Shown: positions 34,701 to 62,472, counted from the stretch's first letter. The stretch: DNA of 64,000 nt from an uncultured Bacteroidales bacterium (GCA_903879715.1 CAIRMR010000032.1:11022-75021), one strand, 5' to 3'. Program-made: numbers and translations. Notes: generated by a model not told the origin, from the sequence alone.

Positions 34701-34840
34701 GGTTGAGTTAAAGTATAAAGGTTGAGGGGGAGGTTGAGGTTGAGGTTGAAGTTAAGGTTAAGGTGGAGGTTAAGGTTAAGGTGGAGGTTGAGGTTAAGGT
34801 TTAGGCTTAAACCTCTCAACCTTTAAACTTAACCTTTTTA
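34701..34840. repeat. low-complexity GGTTGAGG/GGTTAAGG word tract followed by reverse-complement words
   Basis: GGTTGAGGGGGAGGTTGAGGTTGAGGTTGAAGTTAAGGTTAAGGTGGAGG... then CTTAAACCTCTCAACCTTTAAACTTAACC. Confidence 0.8.
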
Positions 34841-40660: not shown

Positions 40661-40668
40661 GGAAATAA

Positions 40669-40729
40669 GGGGTTAGGTTTTAGGGGTTAGGTTTTAGGGG
40701 TTAGGTTTTAGGGGTTGGGATTTAGGGGG
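40669..40729. repeat. G-tract repeat (GGGGTTAGGTTTTA)n, telomere-like, potential G-quadruplex former
   Basis: Four GGGG runs and a final GGGGG run at roughly 14-nt spacing, read directly. Confidence 0.8.
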
Positions 40730-40750
40730 TTCAATATTTCAAATTTCTTT

Positions 40751-40915
40751 TTCGCCTTGTCGCTCTTCGCTCAGTCGCTCCTCACCCAATCGCTCTTCGC
40801 CCAGTCGCTCCTCGCCCTTCGCCCAGTCGCTCCTCGCCCTTCGCCCAGTCGCTCCTCGCCCCTCGCCCAGTCGCCCCTCGCCCAGTCACTCTTCCCCTCG
40901 TCAACTCTCACCCCT
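40751..40915. repeat. C-rich word tract (CGCCCAGTCGCTCCTCGCCCTT)n, reverse-complement sense of the GGCGAAGGG word family
   Basis: About 24-bp imperfect tandem units. The tract overlaps the last codons of 40908..42131. Confidence 0.8.
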
Positions 40916-51050: not shown

Positions 51051-51060
51051 GAGAATGTTT

Positions 51061-51230
51061 GATGTTGGAGATCGGAGGTTGGATTTCGGATGTCGGAGGT
51101 TGGATGTCGGATATCAGATGTTGGATATCGGATGTTGGATATCGGATGTTGGAGGTTGTAGGTTGAATGTTGAAACCTGGAACCTGAAACCTGAAATTTC
51201 AGAATTTGGAATTTCAAATGGCAGAAGCGG
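51061..51230. repeat. low-complexity word tract (GGATGTCGGA/GGATATCGGATGTTGGA, then GAAACCTG/TTTCA palindromic words)
   Basis: Read directly. The GTCGGATGTCGGA words recur at 38830-38850. Confidence 0.8.
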
Positions 51231-52581: not shown

Positions 52582-52740
52582 GTTTTTTGAGGGGTTAGGT
52601 TTTTGGGGTTAGGGATTAGGATTTAGTTTCTTTTGAGATCAAGTGTTCAAATGCTTCGCGTTTAAGGGTTCAATGCTGCGCGTTCAAGGGTTCCAGGTTT
52701 CGGAGATCTATTGCAACTTTTAATCACTTTAAACAGTTTT

Positions 52741-52846
52741 GAACAATCTTGAACAACGTTGAACTATTTAGAACAATATTGAACAACTTTGAACAACATT
52801 GAACAACTTTTAACAACATTGAACAACTTTTAACAATTTTGAACTT
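52741..52846. repeat. about 11 tandem copies of a 10-bp unit (GAACAACNTT)
   Basis: gaacaatctt gaacaacgtt gaactattta gaacaatatt gaacaacttt gaacaacatt gaacaacttt taacaacatt gaacaacttt taacaatttt gaac. Confidence 0.85.
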
Positions 52847-53303: not shown

Positions 53304-53505
53304 TTGCTATTCTGTATTATCATGTTTTTCCAAAAGTACTCAAATTGATTAATCCTGCCATTCTCTATTTTCTATTTTCTATTTTCGTAAATGCTGACAG
53401 GTTTTGCAGACGCTGCCAGGTTTTCAATCCTTATTCCCTTGTCACCCCTCGCCTTGTCGCCCCTTCGCCCCTCTCCTTGTTTACTTTGTCCACTCGTTTA
53501 CCCGT

Positions 53506-55917: not shown

Positions 55918-58059
55918 TTATTTTAATGCAGTTTTACTATCTCCAACATCGGTACCCAGGCGCTGAATATAAGCGATCAAAGCAATTATCTGTTTTGATG
56001 CGGCTACGTCAATACCATTTGTTTTGAGCCCGGCAGCAATGGCTTCAGCCTGTGCTTTCAGATCGTCATTGGCTTTCAGATCATATCCTTCGGGGTACGG
56101 AACTCCAAGATACTGCATAACCCTGATTTTAGCAGGAGTTGCTTCAACATCAATTTCACTTTCAGCAAGCCATGGATATTTAGGCATGATGGATTGTGCG
56201 TTGATCTTCTGAGGATCCATAAAGTGAGTATAATGCCAGGCATCCGACTTGTACAATGGTCCTGATTTTACACCTTCGCGCCATAAATCCGGGCCAATAC
56301 GTTTGGAACCCCACTGGAACGGATGATCATATACATATTCACCAGCTTTGGAATACTCGCCATAGCGTTCGGTTTCGGACCTGAAAGGCCTTACCATCTG
56401 CGAGTGACATACATAACAGCCTTCTTTTATGTAGATATCACGTCCCTGTAATTCGAGTGGTGTATAAGGTTTAACCGTTGCAATAGTTGGGATATTGGAT
56501 TTGATAATAAACGTAGGGATGATTTCAATAATTCCACCAATAAGAACAGCAACAATAGACAGGATCATAAACTGTACAGGGCGACGCTCGATAAAACGGT
56601 GATAGCTTTCACCAGCCTTACGTGCACCTTCTTTTTCAAGTGCCGGAGCTTCGGCAGCTTCCAATGGAACGAATTCACCTGCCTTAACGGTTTTATAGAT
56701 GTTGTAAACAAGGAGGAACATTCCTAAGAAGTATAACGTTCCGCCAAACAACCTCATCCAATACATAGGCATGATTTGAGTAACGATCTCGAGGTAGTTA
56801 GGATAAACAAGGTCACCGGCTTCGGTGAATTGTTTCCACATCGAGGCTTCTGTCCAGCCAGCCCAATACAAAGGAATGGAGTAGAATAACATGGCCAGTG
56901 TTCCTAACCAGAAATGCACATTTGCCAGTTTGTTTGACCACAGTTTGGTTTTGAACATCCGAGGGAACAACCAGTAAATCATACCAAATGTGAGGAAACC
57001 ATTCCATCCCAATGCACCGATATGCACGTGGGCAACGGTCCAGTTGGTAAAGTGGCTGATTGCATTAATATTTTTGAGCGAAAGCATAGGGCCTTCGAAA
57101 GTTGACATACCATAAGCGGTAACTGCTACCACAAAGAATTTGAGAACCGGTTCTTCGCGAACCCTGTCCCATGCGCCACGCAAAGTAAGCAGGCCATTGA
57201 TCATACCGCCCCACGACGGAGCAATAAGCATAATAGAGAAAACTGTTCCTAAAGACTGAGCCCAGTTTGGTAATGCCTGGTATAATAAATGGTGAGGTCC
57301 TGCCCAGATATAAAGGAATATAAGTGCCCAGAAATGCAGAATACTCAGCTTATACGAATAAACCGGGCGGTTGGCTGCTTTGGGCATAAAATAATACATG
57401 AGTCCGAGGTAAGGTGTTGTAAGGAAAAATGCAACCGCATTATGTCCGTACCACCATTGCACAAGCGCATCCTGTACACCGGCAAAAACAGGGTAACTTT
57501 TAAAAAGTGCCCAGGGAATTTCCATTGAGTTAACAATGTGCAGAATAGCTACAGTTACAAACGTAGCAATGTAAAACCAGATAGCTACATAAATATGTTT
57601 TACCCTGCGTTTGAGGATAGTCCACATCATGTTCCAACCGAAAATAACCCAGATCAAAGCGATCAGAATATCGATAGGCCATTCCAGTTCGGCATACTCT
57701 TTTCCGGTTGTAAAACCGGCAAGTAGTGAAACTGCTGCCAGTACAATAATAGATTGCCAGCCCCAGAAATGGACTCTTGTCATCCAGTTACTGGCCATGC
57801 CCGTTTTGAGCAATCGCTGAAGTGAGTAGTAGTATCCGGTGAAAATACCATTACCTACAAATGCAAAAATAACTGCATTGGTGTGAACAGGCCGCCACCG
57901 CCCGAATGTGAGGTAGGGCAGGTTGAAATTTGCCGCAGGCCATACCATTTGCGTGGCAATCAATACCCCGGCCAGCATGCCTACTACGCCCCAGAGGATG
58001 GTGGCATAGGCAAACATCTTCACGATTTTGTTGTCGTAGTAAAATTTTTGTAATTCCAT
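55918..58059 (-). CDS. ccoNO: cbb3-type cytochrome c oxidase, fused subunits I and II (CcoN-CcoO)
   Basis: 713 aa. Haem-copper oxidase helices with conserved His (HTNAV, WYGHNAV, HHLLY, VAHVHIGALGW). The C-terminal CcoO part carries CYVCHSQMVRP. Confidence 0.9.
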   Translation of the reverse strand: MELQKFYYDNKIVKMFAYATILWGVVGMLAGVLIATQMVWPAANFNLPYLTFGRWRPVHTNAVIFAFVGNGIFTGYYYSLQRLLKTGMASNWMTRVHFWGWQSIIVLAAVSLLAGFTTGKEYAELEWPIDILIALIWVIFGWNMMWTILKRRVKHIYVAIWFYIATFVTVAILHIVNSMEIPWALFKSYPVFAGVQDALVQWWYGHNAVAFFLTTPYLGLMYYFMPKAANRPVYSYKLSILHFWALIFLYIWAGPHHLLYQALPNWAQSLGTVFSIMLIAPSWGGMINGLLTLRGAWDRVREEPVLKFFVVAVTAYGMSTFEGPMLSLKNINAISHFTNWTVAHVHIGALGWNGFLTFGMIYWLFPRMFKTKLWSNKLANVHFWLGTLAMLFYSIPLYWAGWTEASMWKQFTEAGDLVYPNYLEIVTQIMPMYWMRLFGGTLYFLGMFLLVYNIYKTVKAGEFVPLEAAEAPALEKEGARKAGESYHRFIERRPVQFMILSIVAVLIGGIIEIIPTFIIKSNIPTIATVKPYTPLELQGRDIYIKEGCYVCHSQMVRPFRSETERYGEYSKAGEYVYDHPFQWGSKRIGPDLWREGVKSGPLYKSDAWHYTHFMDPQKINAQSIMPKYPWLAESEIDVEATPAKIRVMQYLGVPYPEGYDLKANDDLKAQAEAIAAGLKTNGIDVAASKQIIALIAYIQRLGTDVGDSKTALK

Positions 58060-58076: not shown

Positions 58077-58259
58077 CTAAACTTTGTTTGGGTTTGTATT
58101 TGTTTGTTTGGGTTTTTCATCATCATTATCAAATAATATCCTGACAGAAGGCGAAATATCATCGTCATACTGCCCTGATTTTACAGCCCACAAAAAAGCA
58201 ACAAGAAATCCTGCTGCTACTACTATGCTAAAACCGATAAGTACTACTATAACGCTCAT
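58077..58259 (-). CDS. ccoS: cbb3 oxidase maturation protein CcoS
   Basis: 60 aa. A TM helix followed by KSGQYDD is characteristic of CcoS/FixS. Confidence 0.75.
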   Translation of the reverse strand: MSVIVVLIGFSIVVAAGFLVAFLWAVKSGQYDDDISPSVRILFDNDDEKPKQTNTNPNKV

Positions 58260-58477
58260 TTAAGTATTGAAATATTGAATTAGTCAAAGATATTGAATCA
58301 GATATTACAAAGTTCGGAAGCATGTTAATTTAGAACTATTCCTAATAAACACATATGTTTCTGAAATATAATACTTTAAAATATACAGAATTTAACATAT
58401 CATTTACATTTACATCAATAGCATAAAAATAACAAGTAAACTGGTACTTGATTTAATCAGGTACGAATTGTATTAAA

Positions 58478-60859
58478 TTAAAATTTTCTGGATTTCGAAA
58501 GTGCTGAAACCGACAAACTTGCAAAAGTTACAACCGAGATGGAACTCAACGGCATTAATATAGCTGCAAACACCGGCGACAATAATCCTTGTATCGCAAA
58601 CGTAAGACCAACAATGTTATAAAGGAATGAAATCAAGTAACTGGCATATACTATATTCATGGCTGATTTTGAAAACCTTAGATAATCCTGCAGCCTTCCG
58701 AATTTTGAGGATGACAAAATAGCATCACAAGCCGGCGAAAAATGATAGATATCATCAGCAATTGTAATCCCGATATCCGCTTTCAACAATGCACCGGCAT
58801 CATTTAAACCATCACCGATCATAATTACATTACGTCCATTTGCCTTCAATTCCGTAATATATTCAAGTTTATCGACCGGAGTCTGGTTGAAATGCAATTG
58901 GGTGTCAGGAGAGAAGTATGTTCTCAGGTTTGCCTCTTCCGAATCATTATCGCCGGTTAAAAGATGAAGCTGCATGTGTTTCATTCCGGCTATCACTTCC
59001 GGTAATCCTTCGCGGTAATGGTTTTCCATTTTAAAAAAGCCGCGGAGTTTATTGTCTATTGAAACATATACAGATGATATTTTATTTTCTTCAGAAACAT
59101 CATTACCTGCAATAAACCGCCGTGACCCAAGCATGACGCGATGTCCGTCAACAAATCCATTTATGCCAAGACCACTTATTTCTTTGTAGTTATCAACAGC
59201 AAGTAGGGCGCTGACCGGTAGCCATTCACTCACCATTATTGAAAGTGGATGAGTTGAATTCCGGGCGACTGATCGTATAAACTGCTCTTCACCGGCACTT
59301 AAGGCAATGCCTTCCCACCCGATATTCATTGTCCGGGAATGTGTGAGCGTGCCGGTTTTATCAAACACTACTGTATCGGCATGGGTAAGCTTTTCGATCA
59401 CTTCTGTATTTTTAATATAAAAACCATTGCGCCCGAAAACCCGCATTACATTGCCAAAAGTAAAAGGGATTGTAAGTGACAAGGCACACGGACAAGCAAC
59501 AATCAGGATAGAAGCAAATACGTAAACAGCCTTTCCAAAATCAGAAAACGACCAAAAAACACCGGCACTGAATGCAATGGCAAGAATGACAAGTGTAAAA
59601 TAATGGCTTACTCTGGTAATAACGGATTGCATCTGAATTCCGGCTTCTTCACCCAGTTTATCCTCGTTCCATAATTGTGTGAGATAACTTTGTGCAACTT
59701 CTTTTTCGACCCTGAGCCTGATTGCTGCGCCCGACTGCTTTCCTCCTGCAAAAACAAAATCCCCTGCTTTTTTCGAAACCGGGATCGATTCGCCGGTTAC
59801 AAAACTGTAATCAATATTTCCTTCGCCATCTGTTAAAATAGAATCTACAGGAATAAGTTCGCCATTCCTCACAAGGATAATATCCCCTGTTTTAAGGTCT
59901 TTAAGTTGAACAAAATCTTCCTTTCCATCAAGCAAACGTGTTACGGCTATCGGGAAATAAGATCGGTAATCGCGGTCAAACGATAGAGATTGATACGTTC
60001 GGCTTTGGTACCAGCGACCAATAAGCATAAAAAAGAGCAAACCTGCCAGGGAGTCCATATACCCGGTACCTGCGCCACTGAAAATTTCATAGGTGCTTTC
60101 GAGAAATAAGGAAATAATTCCAATTGATAAAGGCAGATCAATATTAATTATCTTTTTACGAAGGCTTTTAAATGCTGACAAAAAGAAATCGCTGCTGCAA
60201 AATGTTATTACAGGTAATGCCAAAACAAAAGAGACTATACCGAATGTTCCTGCCATCAGTTCATCAATGGCTTCACCTCCAGGAAGGTAATCGGGAAAAC
60301 TAAGCAGCATTATATTCCCGAATGCAAACCCGGCAACTCCGATCTTCATGATCATACGGCGGTTCGCTTTCTGGTGATCGTCCTTCTTTTCCTTGTTATA
60401 ACTGATATCCGGAATGTAATGGATGGTATGTAATAGTTCAATTACCTGCCTGAGGCTGATATCACTTTCGCGGAAGGTTATACTTACTTCTTTGCGGACG
60501 AAATTCACATGTGAATGCATTATTCCCTTATGTATTGTATTCAGGTTTTCAAGAAGCCATATACATGAACTGCAGTGTATTGCAGGAATAAAAAGGTTAA
60601 CTCGGGAGATTCCTCCATCCGAAAAATCCAGGAGTTTCAAACGGATTTCATCGTTATCGAGGTATGCATAGCGGGTTCCGGAAGTATTTTCCTGATCAAG
60701 GCGGATACCAGGTGTCGGCATCATATCGTAATACCTGTCCAGTTTCTTTTCCGAAAGAATCTGGAACACCATGCTGCAACCATTGCAACAGAATGTTTTA
60801 TCGTCCCATATTACCGGATTTTTACCGCAATCCTGCCCGCAATGTATGCATTCAGCCAT
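58478..60859 (-). CDS. ccoI: heavy-metal (copper) translocating P-type ATPase, CcoI/FixI type
   Basis: N-terminal Cys-rich domain (CIHCGQDC...CCNGC), CPC motif (VACPCAL), DKTGTLT, GDGLNDAG. Confidence 0.9.
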   Translation of the reverse strand: MAECIHCGQDCGKNPVIWDDKTFCCNGCSMVFQILSEKKLDRYYDMMPTPGIRLDQENTSGTRYAYLDNDEIRLKLLDFSDGGISRVNLFIPAIHCSSCIWLLENLNTIHKGIMHSHVNFVRKEVSITFRESDISLRQVIELLHTIHYIPDISYNKEKKDDHQKANRRMIMKIGVAGFAFGNIMLLSFPDYLPGGEAIDELMAGTFGIVSFVLALPVITFCSSDFFLSAFKSLRKKIINIDLPLSIGIISLFLESTYEIFSGAGTGYMDSLAGLLFFMLIGRWYQSRTYQSLSFDRDYRSYFPIAVTRLLDGKEDFVQLKDLKTGDIILVRNGELIPVDSILTDGEGNIDYSFVTGESIPVSKKAGDFVFAGGKQSGAAIRLRVEKEVAQSYLTQLWNEDKLGEEAGIQMQSVITRVSHYFTLVILAIAFSAGVFWSFSDFGKAVYVFASILIVACPCALSLTIPFTFGNVMRVFGRNGFYIKNTEVIEKLTHADTVVFDKTGTLTHSRTMNIGWEGIALSAGEEQFIRSVARNSTHPLSIMVSEWLPVSALLAVDNYKEISGLGINGFVDGHRVMLGSRRFIAGNDVSEENKISSVYVSIDNKLRGFFKMENHYREGLPEVIAGMKHMQLHLLTGDNDSEEANLRTYFSPDTQLHFNQTPVDKLEYITELKANGRNVIMIGDGLNDAGALLKADIGITIADDIYHFSPACDAILSSSKFGRLQDYLRFSKSAMNIVYASYLISFLYNIVGLTFAIQGLLSPVFAAILMPLSSISVVTFASLSVSALSKSRKF

Positions 60860-60909
60860 TTTTCAATTTTAATAGGGTCGCAAAAATAGACAAAATTGTC
60901 CGTTTTTCC

Positions 60910-61247
60910 GTAGAGACGCAATGTTTGCGTCTCGTGGTATAATGAACAATTTGTAAAGAGACGCAATGTTTGCGTCTCGTGGTATAATGAACAATTTGTA
61001 AAGAGACGCAATGTTTGCGTCTCGTGGTATAATGAACAATTTGTAAAGAGACGCAATGTTTGCGTCTCGTGGATAATGAACAATTTGTAAAGAGACGCAA
61101 TGTTTGCGTCTCGTGGTATAATGAACAATTTGTAAAGAGACGCAATGTTTGCGTCTCGTGGTATAATGAACAATTTGTATAGAGACGCAATGTTTGCGTC
61201 TCCAGATATAATGAACAATTTGTAAAGAGACGCAATGTTTGCGTCTC
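60910..61247. repeat. tandem array: 8 copies of a 45-bp unit, each with the perfect palindrome GAGACGCAA-TGT-TTGCGTCTC
   Basis: Hairpin starts at 60912, 60957, 61002, 61047, 61091, 61136, 61181 and 61226. The period is 45 bp, with one 44-bp unit. A degenerate ninth hairpin lies at 61269-61295. Confidence 0.95.
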
Positions 61248-61302
61248 TAAGGCGATCCTACATTATTCGTAGAGACACGAGCATCGCGTCTCTACGGTAT
61301 GG

Positions 61303-61337
61303 CAAAAAAAAACCTCCGGAAAGGAGGTTTTTTTTAT
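61303..61337 (-). terminator. intrinsic (bidirectional) terminator after pfkA
   Basis: AAAAAAAAACCTCC-GGAA-GGAGGTTTTTTTTT. Confidence 0.85.
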
Positions 61338-61356: not shown

Positions 61357-62472
61357 TTATTCTTCCAACGCAATCTGATCATTTCCGAAACTGATTCCCA
61401 GACCACGGGCTGTTTTCATGAGAGCGGTATCCAGTGTAACCAGGTTTGGTTTCTGAACAGCATCCTCAAGGGTAACGCTCGTAATATAAGGATGCTGGTA
61501 CGAAACCATGCGTCCGAATTCTTCATTCATAACCATTTCAAAAGCCTTTACTCCGAATTGTGAAGCCAGAACCCGGTCATACGCATTTGGGATACCACCA
61601 CGCTGGAGGTGGCCTAATACTGTAACCCTGATATCATGCTCACATCCCAGCGTTTTGAGATCATCTTCGAGTTTGAATCCGATACCACCCAGGCGAACAT
61701 GTTCATAACCAACTTCAGTACTCTTCTCACCAATGATTTCGCCATCTTTTGGTTTTGCACCTTCAGCAATAACAATAATTGCGAAACCGCGCCCTTTATG
61801 GAAACGGGCATTTACTTTCGAAAGTACTTCGTTGGTATCATAAGGAATTTCGGGGATCAGGCAAATTTCAGCACCACCGGCAACAGCCGCATTTAATGCA
61901 ATCCAGCCCGCGTCACGTCCCATTACTTCGAGAATGAATACACGGTTGTGACTGGCAGCTGTTGTTACAAGTTTATCAACAGCCTCAGTGGCAATTTCAA
62001 TAGCTGTTTGAAAACCGAAGGTAGAATCCGTTGCAGAAAGGTCATTATCAATGGTTTTAGGAACGCCAATAATATTCAGCCCTTGTTTGAAGAGTCTCTG
62101 CGAAATACGTTGAGATCCGTCGCCTCCAATGCTGATAACTGCATCAATACCCAGGTACGACATTTTACGGATCATTTCATCCGAGCGATCCACATATTCC
62201 CATTCGCCTTTTTTATTTTTTACCGGCCAGGCATAAGGTCCCCCTTTATTGGTAGTCTGAATAATTGTACCGCCCTGGTAATGAATTCCGGCAACTTTCT
62301 CCGAATCCAAAATCATAAGTTCGGTAGGCTCGTTCAGAATTCCATCGAAAGCTTTTATACTTCCTAATACTTCCCAATCAGTTTCTTGCGAAGCACGCTT
62401 AACAATTGCCCTGATAACTGCATTTAACCCGGGGCAATCGCCTCCGCCGGTAAGAACCATTACTCTTTTCAT
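61357..62472 (-). CDS. pfkA: ATP-dependent 6-phosphofructokinase
   Basis: LTGGGDCPGLNAVIRA, IGGDGSQ, PKTIDNDL and MGRDAGW motifs. Confidence 0.9.
   Translation of the reverse strand: MKRVMVLTGGGDCPGLNAVIRAIVKRASQETDWEVLGSIKAFDGILNEPTELMILDSEKVAGIHYQGGTIIQTTNKGGPYAWPVKNKKGEWEYVDRSDEMIRKMSYLGIDAVISIGGDGSQRISQRLFKQGLNIIGVPKTIDNDLSATDSTFGFQTAIEIATEAVDKLVTTAASHNRVFILEVMGRDAGWIALNAAVAGGAEICLIPEIPYDTNEVLSKVNARFHKGRGFAIIVIAEGAKPKDGEIIGEKSTEVGYEHVRLGGIGFKLEDDLKTLGCEHDIRVTVLGHLQRGGIPNAYDRVLASQFGVKAFEMVMNEEFGRMVSYQHPYITSVTLEDAVQKPNLVTLDTALMKTARGLGISFGNDQIALEE

Follow-up and report, generated by a model that had tools for sequence, protein, structure and literature searches.

A probable RAYT-associated REP cluster, tandemly amplified between pfkA and ccoI, in a Lentimicrobiaceae-like Bacteroidales bacterium

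Between the phosphofructokinase gene pfkA and ccoI, which encodes a CcoI/FixI-type P-type ATPase, a Bacteroidales genome carries eight hairpins in nearly identical units arranged head to tail. What this array is, and whether it acts on ccoI and the cbb3 genes that follow, is the question raised by the locus. A sequence-only reading had offered three possible roles for the array: a multimerised operator, a series of RNA hairpins in the ccoI leader, or a contingency locus that tunes expression through its copy number. We analyzed the array within a 64-kb stretch of DNA, referred to below as the window (G+C content 39.5%), together with related and unrelated loci that carry the same hairpin. The closest named homologues of the CcoI protein come from Bacteroidales and Lentimicrobium MAGs, and the lineage is therefore a Lentimicrobiaceae-like member of the Bacteroidales. 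The features of the locus are collected in Table 1; the identities given earlier for the two flanking genes agree with the Pfam assignments.

Table 1. Positions of the hairpin array, its flanking genes and associated signals in the window
Feature	Position	Strand	Basis or remark
REP hairpin array, eight hairpins, all in the same orientation	60910-61247	+	Seven 44-45-bp periods, each a hairpin with its 24-nt linker, then one last hairpin
Promoter-proximal hairpin with canonical foot, GTAGAGACGCAATGTTTGCGTCTC	60910-60933	+	Aligns with H3 of relatives
Seven further hairpins, first four	60958-60978, 61003-61023, 61048-61068, 61092-61112	+	Degenerate foot GTAAAG
Seven further hairpins, last three	61137-61157, 61182-61202, 61227-61247	+	GTAAAG; GTATAG before the 61182 copy
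Unique 21-nt linker between array and distal hairpin	61248-61268		Sequence and alignment with relatives
Ninth, double-foot REP GTAGAGACACGAGCATCGCGTCTCTAC, with two apical mismatches	61269-61295	+	Orthologue of hairpin H1 of relatives
ccoI/fixI P-type ATPase gene	58478-60859	-	Pfam
ccoS	58077-58259	-	Pfam
ccoNO fusion, then ccoP and ccoG	55918-58059 (ccoNO)	-	Pfam
Phosphofructokinase gene (pfkA), upstream of the array	61357-62472	-	Pfam
Bidirectional terminator-like hairpin A8-CCTCC-GGAAA-GGAGG-T8, just past pfkA	61305-61335		Kept in relatives
Putative ccoI -7 box, TATTTTTG	60881-60888	-	Precedes the ATG by 22-29 nt and follows the CTAC foot of the first hairpin after 21 nt

The repeat structure reported earlier is confirmed by Tandem Repeats Finder, which identifies a 45-bp period (7.5 copies, 97% matches) spanning 60912-61247. 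The hairpin GAGACGCAA-TGT-TTGCGTCTC is present in eight exact copies, spaced 44-45 bp apart between 60913 and 61247, and the 21-mer GAGACGCAATGTTTGCGTCTC occurs eight times exactly, versus no occurrence in shuffled sequences. Two details of the earlier description require correction. The eight units of 45 bp are eight hairpins but only seven full 45-bp periods, and the 21-mer is not the perfect palindrome it had been called: two 9-bp arms form an inverted repeat, but the TGT loop they enclose is not palindromic, and a match on the reverse strand takes three mismatches. All eight loops read TGT on the plus strand, which is the strand that displays the GTAG foot and is antisense to both ccoI and pfkA. 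Variation among the units is as limited as had been described: the 24-nt linker is identical in four units, differs by one substitution in one unit and by three in another, and carries a 1-nt deletion in unit 4, and unit 7 of the array has five substitutions.

The copies also differ in their feet. The copy closest to the promoter (60910) reads GTAGAGACGC, whereas copies 2-8 read GTAAAGAGACGC or GTATAGAGACGC, and the canonical GTAG foot is found in only two of the nine window copies (60910 and 61269). The ninth, diverged hairpin that had been noted is indeed present; it displays GTAG on one side and CTAC on the other. Folding energies of the array hairpins as single-stranded DNA, between about -9.4 and -9.8 kcal/mol (z from -4.4 to -5.0), show that each is stable. 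With a stem of 9 bp, a loop of 3 nt and eight exact copies, all intergenic, they fall within the range used to recognize REPs, in which the basal stem is fully paired over 7 bp or more and the loop has 2-5 nt. REPs are further recognized by a GTAG or GTGG tetranucleotide placed 0-2 nt on the 5' side of the stem, which here is seen at 60910 and 61269. No further copy of the hairpin family is found in the 64-kb window outside 60910-61295. We regard ORFs of 127-135 aa that run through the array as artefacts that arise when a repeat is translated. The BsmBI/Esp3I site of each arm is likewise regarded as a by-product of the GAGACG core that the whole family shares. A CRISPR array, already discounted in the sequence-only reading, is rejected here as well: the linkers are identical or nearly so rather than unique spacers, and no Cas domain is found among the seven neighboring genes scanned (pfkA, ccoI, ccoS, ccoNO, ccoP, ccoG and one unassigned ORF).

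The plus strand of the array also contains TGGTATAAT, at 60934-60945 and in each full unit except the fourth and the seventh. This string is a perfect sigma-70-type extended -10 element directed away from ccoI. We rejected it as a promoter, and it is probably meaningless, because the host belongs to the Bacteroidota and the element has no -35 partner.

The hairpin is widespread beyond this locus. A scan of one genome per species, about 1.2e12 positions, for GAGACGCAANNNTTGCGTCTC (18 fixed bases) returned at least 120 loci, compared with approximately 17 that we estimate from size alone. Among the matches listed, the taxa include many Bacteroidota as well as Nostoc, Beggiatoa-like Thiotrichaceae, Methylococcales, Ignavibacteria, Kapabacteria and others, and the neighbors of the hairpin are unrelated housekeeping genes. 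The window array itself is absent from the inspected loci among these matches. Flectobacillus, Parabeggiatoa and Fibrella each have multiple hairpin loci per genome, every set with its own conserved flanks, and the hairpin is therefore part of dispersed repeats in these genomes. A foot (GTA or TAC) accompanies 105 of the 127 copies among the matches listed, on one side in 82 and on both sides in 23, with 22 copies having neither. The side of the foot follows the orientation of the loop without exception in these matches, TGC loops pairing with a left foot (16:0) and GCA loops with a right foot (24:0). This agreement yields an oriented consensus, 5'-GTAGAGACGCAATGCTTGCGTCTC, and such an oriented, footed hairpin is, judged by its sequence, a GTAG-tagged REP (Di Nocera et al. 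2013, PMC3733652). A full-text literature search with the arm sequences gave only primer matches. An exact search of JGI metagenome contigs with the unit linker and foot gave no matches, and the species is therefore absent from that collection.

In Nostoc and Desmonostoc, a single copy of the hairpin occupies a conserved syntenic site at 11 loci (L025, L030, L036, L038, L069, L071, L073, L076, L079, L081 and L105). It is located 64-174 nt from a conserved 135-aa ORF that has no Pfam match, near the gene for a CAAD-domain protein. The ORFs of this locus are not transposases.

This distribution bears directly on the possibility that each hairpin is a binding site for a dimeric regulator of ccoI and the cbb3 genes. 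Such an operator is consistent with the perfect 9-bp inverted repeat in each unit, with the position of the array next to the ccoI promoter region, and with the constant distance that close relatives maintain from the proximal hairpin to the -7 box. However, a ccoI-specific operator is unsupported because the same hairpin is found beside unrelated genes at 120 or more loci. These loci span many phyla, and an all-against-all BLAST of the neighboring ORFs among the matches listed found a common gene family only at the syntenic Nostoc locus. The hairpins also flank RAYT genes, and their number at the pfkA-ccoI locus ranges from one decayed copy to nine among organisms with 86-100% identical CcoI proteins. 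We consider the operator, as proposed earlier, to be very improbable.

The connection to RAYT transposases was examined by tblastn, with query proteins from Additional file 5 of Di Nocera et al., against all of the fetched loci and the window. Nine RAYT/TIRYT proteins gave no match in the 64-kb window. Among the fetched loci, matches were limited to three (L044, L061 and L116), all of them Bacteroidales MAGs in which the matching ORF adjoins the hairpin and is flanked by three to eight copies of it. In L044 and L061, GTAGAGACGC hairpins are found on both sides of an ORF of about 190 aa (six and two copies in L044, two and four in L061), in alternating orientations and 41-52 bp apart, and in L116 three hairpins are located on the upstream side of the ORF only. 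Proteins of this type match the NCBIfam model NF047646 (REP_Tyr_transpos) over nearly the full length of the model with E values of 2e-12 and 8e-16, although the scores of 47-58 bits are below the curated cut-off of 80. Their match to Pfam Y1_Tnp is only marginal, and a PDB sequence search with the L044 protein returned no significant match. The proteins are 184-196 aa long and contain NHVH or NHFH, GWQ, and YIENNV or YIIKNP. TnpA_REP subclass 2.4, equivalent to Bertels group 4, is characterized by NH[IFV]H, WQ and YIxNNP and a length of about 194 aa (Quentin et al. 2018, PMC6006769). According to the same study, its members are numerous in Cyanobacteria and Bacteroidetes and occur sporadically elsewhere; the REPs that accompany them are canonical or of the 'double foot' type (GTAG...CTAC), and REP insertions are also found within the gene itself. 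By these sequence features, the L044, L061 and L116 proteins appear to be subclass-2.4 RAYTs.

Metagenomic relatives of the RAYT-like protein, at 38-58% identity, show the same association. In 54 of 80 cases, GTAGAGAC or GTCTCTAC is present within 1.5 kb, and the two 8-mers total 192 occurrences in the 213 kb of these loci versus about 5 in shuffles. The most common foot-plus-stem start near these relatives is GTAGAGACGCA. A published REP provides a further match: GTAGAGACGCAATGCATTGCGTCTCTAC is the REP of the subclass-2.4 gene ABB28784.1 (Quentin et al. 2018, Additional file 2, PMC6006769), and its arms are those of the window hairpin. These comparisons indicate that the window hairpin matches a REP family documented beside a RAYT gene, and that the family GTAGAGACGC...GCGTCTC(TAC) evidently travels with subclass-2.4 (Bertels group 4) RAYTs. 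The identity of the unit as a member of a cross-phylum, GTAG-footed REP family linked to RAYTs is what the earlier reading missed. The window hairpins may be relic REPs, because neither a RAYT gene nor a further member of the family occurs in the 64-kb window. This absence, the degenerate feet of the internal units and the RAYT-like scores below the NCBIfam cut-off count against reading the array as a REP cluster.

One of the metagenomic RAYT genes (L195) displays the REP insertions that are a hallmark of the subclass: at 684-876, from the HuH motif toward the Y motif, the reading frame is kept through three REP copies, tandem 66-bp units of GTAGAGACGTTGCATGCAACGTCTCTAC.

Comparison with known systems places the array closest to REPs, with differences in detail. 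The array resembles the subclass-2.4 REPs in its arms (GAGACGCAA/TTGCGTCTC, identical to those of GTAGAGACGCAATGCATTGCGTCTCTAC), in the GTAG foot at 60910 and the double foot GTAG...CTAC of the ninth hairpin, and in the phyletic spread of its family over Bacteroidota, Cyanobacteria and scattered phyla; it differs in having a TGT loop of 3 nt, where the published loop is TGCA, and internal feet that read GTAAAG (six) or GTATAG (one) (PMC6006769). The GTAG REP clusters surveyed by Di Nocera, De Gregorio and Rocco (2013, PMC3733652) include some in which one element is repeated in tandem along with the DNA beside it, as in the window, where the reiterated segment is a hairpin and its 24-nt linker. 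In contrast to the window, Bacteroidetes are not among the taxa for which that survey reported GTAG REPs, and it found the head-to-tail arrangement to be under-represented among REP dimers. The uniform orientation of all window copies therefore counts against our preferred explanation. Like the bacterial interspersed mosaic elements (BIMEs) of E. coli, the array consists of regularly spaced, intergenic REP hairpins downstream of a gene. BIMEs, however, alternate in orientation, as do the L044 and L061 clusters, whereas the window has eight uniform hairpins with identical linkers; with alternation absent and the reverse strand matching only at three mismatches, we rejected a BIME. Mycobacterial MIRUs are intergenic minisatellites, or VNTRs, with head-to-tail units of 40-100 bp whose copy number differs between close strains. 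The window array is likewise head to tail and between genes, and its copy number probably varies between strains, but its unit is built on a transposase-associated palindrome and does not overlap the flanking stop and start codons.

Direct arrays of a REP and its linker are found elsewhere in the family, including five copies of 55 bp beside the L195 RAYT gene (1116-1394) and several arrays of about three copies. In a separate Bacteroidales MAG (L066, 106-573), about 21 tandem 22-bp units are derived from half of a GAGACGCGATGCTCGCGTCTC hairpin, with an intact GAGACGCAAGCATTGCGTCTCTAC adjoining them.

The position of the array relative to transcription signals was examined in the window and in relatives. 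In the ccoI sense, the pfkA stop codon is followed by the terminator hairpin, the double-foot REP and the array, and then by GGAAAAACGGACAATTTTGTC, TATTTTTG, 21 nt and the ATG. The Bacteroidetes -7 promoter consensus, known from the Bacteroides promoter literature, is TAnnTTTG. TATTTTTG fits this consensus and is a putative ccoI -7 box. The box is present in all five lineages (TATTTTTA in L134), although the remainder of the spacer diverges. The distance from the proximal hairpin to the box is a constant 21-22 nt in relatives of at least 89% identity, which could reflect function rather than mere inheritance. The ccoI core promoter would thus lie downstream of the array, and the array is probably not in the ccoI leader because the conserved -7 box separates it from the ATG. 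The earlier location of the array between the pfkA terminator and ccoI stands, whereas its assignment to the ccoI 5'-UTR is unlikely. The array would also be outside the bulk of pfkA transcripts, because the terminator precedes it. With the pfkA terminator on one side and the ccoI core promoter on the other, the array would be mostly untranscribed.

Computational scans of these signals gave few matches. A sigma-70 promoter and terminator scan had no match inside the array. In an intrinsic-terminator test, the array hairpins showed no T run, being followed by GTGGTA on the plus strand and TTTACA on the minus strand. The terminator-like hairpin at 61305-61335 was itself not flagged in the terminator scan, presumably because its A and T runs pair with each other and leave no free T tail. 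Rfam, at the gathering threshold, detected one tRNA in the whole window and nothing at the array.

These signals also bear on whether RNA hairpins, in the ccoI leader or in pfkA read-through, affect where transcription stops or continues, or how stable the mRNA is. Folded as ccoI-sense RNA, the spacer gives a very strong structure (-179 kcal/mol, z = -16.6), and REPs in other bacteria are known to stabilize upstream mRNA and to attenuate transcription. G-T pairs are frequent in REP stems, which suggests that REPs are transcribed (Di Nocera et al. 2013, PMC3733652). However, a fold score of this size is expected of any array of perfect inverted repeats. Moreover, the pfkA side of the array is closed by a strong terminator hairpin, the conserved TAnnTTTG box between array and ATG implies a leader of about 15 nt, and the array hairpins lack a U tract. 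A role as leader or read-through RNA, as the sequence-only reading had suggested, is therefore quite unlikely.

Two features of the coding region and the wider window are recorded here. The gap between ccoI and ccoS (58260-58477) comprises 218 nt of non-coding sequence, and on related contigs the ccoS start is called variously, giving products of 51, 60 or 67 aa, or ccoS is not called at all. The window also contains at least five other regions of short-period, imperfect intergenic tandem repeats, at 34718-34805, 40668-40887, 51055-51172, 52590-52844 and 53437-53469, with units of AGGTTG (14 copies), AGGGGTTAGGTTTT (four), TCGCCC-rich 15/22-mers, GATGTTGGATATCG (seven) and CAACTTTGAA (13). This density of short repeats in 64 kb recalls the heptamer repeats of cyanobacteria and suggests a slippage-prone genome.

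The origin of the array was examined by comparing the pfkA-ccoI spacers of relatives whose CcoI proteins are 94, 91, 89 and 86% identical to that of the window, the 94% lineage being represented by eight spacer-spanning contigs from different samples. In the 94% lineage, the terminator is followed by a hairpin H1 (GTAGAGACGCGATGCTCGCGTCT), a linker, a hairpin H2 (GAGACGTAAACATTGCGTCTC), a 24-nt linker, a hairpin H3 (GAGACGCGAGCATCGCGTCTCTAC) and the conserved promoter region. The spacer contains two decayed hairpins in the 89% lineage, one decayed hairpin in the 91% lineage, and one hairpin with a long loop in the 86% lineage. When the window array was collapsed to two units and aligned with these spacers, it proved collinear with H1-sp1-H2-sp2-H3. 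The repeated unit corresponds to H2 plus sp2, with 17 of the 24 linker positions matching by our own count. The promoter-proximal copy (60910) combines the apex of the amplified hairpin H2 with the foot (CTAC) and flank of the ancestral third hairpin, H3. This hybrid is evidently the junction expected if a misalignment of H2 with H3 began the amplification. A second, independent event is seen in the 94% lineage, where one contig (L125, 2246-2446) carries a 90-bp tandem duplication of H1-sp1-H2-sp2 with an H3/H1 hybrid junction; the seven other spacer-spanning contigs of that lineage do not. The comparison of these sequences shows that REPs at the pfkA-ccoI spacer are inherited vertically and that tandem duplication with hybrid junctions is recurrent.

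These observations allow us to propose a mechanism. An ancestor of the Lentimicrobiaceae-like lineage would have gained two or three hairpins in the stretch that runs from the pfkA terminator to the ccoI promoter. In the window strain, a 45-bp module consisting of the middle hairpin and the 24-nt linker would then have been amplified head to tail, by what we infer to be replication slippage or unequal recombination between neighboring hairpins, with the shared hairpin arms serving as the direct repeats. The outcome would be eight near-identical copies, in a number that depends on the strain.

Copy number was addressed with other assemblies. A 59-kb contig of another assembly (ERZ1426769) encodes identical CcoI and PFK proteins, and its spacer, as judged from gene coordinates only, is 452 nt long versus 497 nt in the window, which is exactly one 45-bp unit fewer; by the same coordinates, a neighboring 644-nt spacer is unchanged. 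Logan short-read contigs of ERR4222574 (L001 and L002) end inside the array on both sides. Both the ending of these contigs within the repeat and the 45-bp difference between two assemblies are consistent with a single hairpin unit having been inflated by the assembler, and typical short reads are shorter than the 338-bp array. However, the array is real because both of its borders are reproduced in an independent sample and its units carry distinguishable variants, namely the 1-nt deletion in unit 4 and the five substitutions in unit 7. In relatives assembled independently, furthermore, the corresponding site contains two or three hairpins and a duplication. An assembly artefact is accordingly highly unlikely, and the copy number of eight is provisional. 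The copy number probably differs between strains. The earlier suggestion of a recent expansion is upheld, and that of copy-number variation is supported by the 45-bp assembly difference and the independent 90-bp duplication.

The same two observations could be taken to indicate a phase-variable contingency locus, where ccoI and cbb3 would be expressed more or less strongly as units are gained or lost, since assemblies with identical CcoI and PFK apparently differ by one unit and a relative has duplicated 90 bp independently. The location of the array argues against this. It is upstream of the core promoter and downstream of the terminator, and changes in its length therefore leave promoter spacing and reading frame unaltered. 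Similar tandem REP arrays are also present at unrelated loci, and the differences in copy number, seen in metagenomes assembled from short reads, may in part be artefacts. We give a contingency locus very little likelihood.

Taken together, the array is very probably a tandemly amplified, and probably copy-number-variable, REP cluster of the RAYT subclass-2.4 type, and would be selfish or neutral DNA. We infer no dedicated regulatory function for it. At most, by analogy with other REPs, generic effects are possible: the array might hinder read-through, shield the 3' ends of mRNAs, or bind gyrase or nucleoid proteins. There is a small chance that REP copy number sets how far ccoI and the cbb3 assembly and oxidase genes are insulated against read-through out of pfkA, or against local supercoiling and cruciform formation. 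If this were true, the array would tune high-affinity oxidase expression through REPs, in a way that is heritable but unstable. In a related scenario that shares this small chance, the constant 21-22 nt spacing to the -7 box would mark the proximal REP as domesticated into an upstream promoter element.

For annotation, the correct label of the array would be a REP cluster, and the region would no longer be listed as a candidate regulatory element or contingency locus. In practice, short-read assemblies may be expected to break or miscount at the array, which has potential as a strain-typing marker. More broadly, the GTAGAGACGC REP family appears to retain a nearly constant sequence across phyla in the company of one RAYT clade, and REPs of this family occur in Lentimicrobiaceae-like Bacteroidales. 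Because hybrid junction copies are preserved, the locus and its relatives would provide a clean natural example of neighboring REPs seeding head-to-tail amplification.
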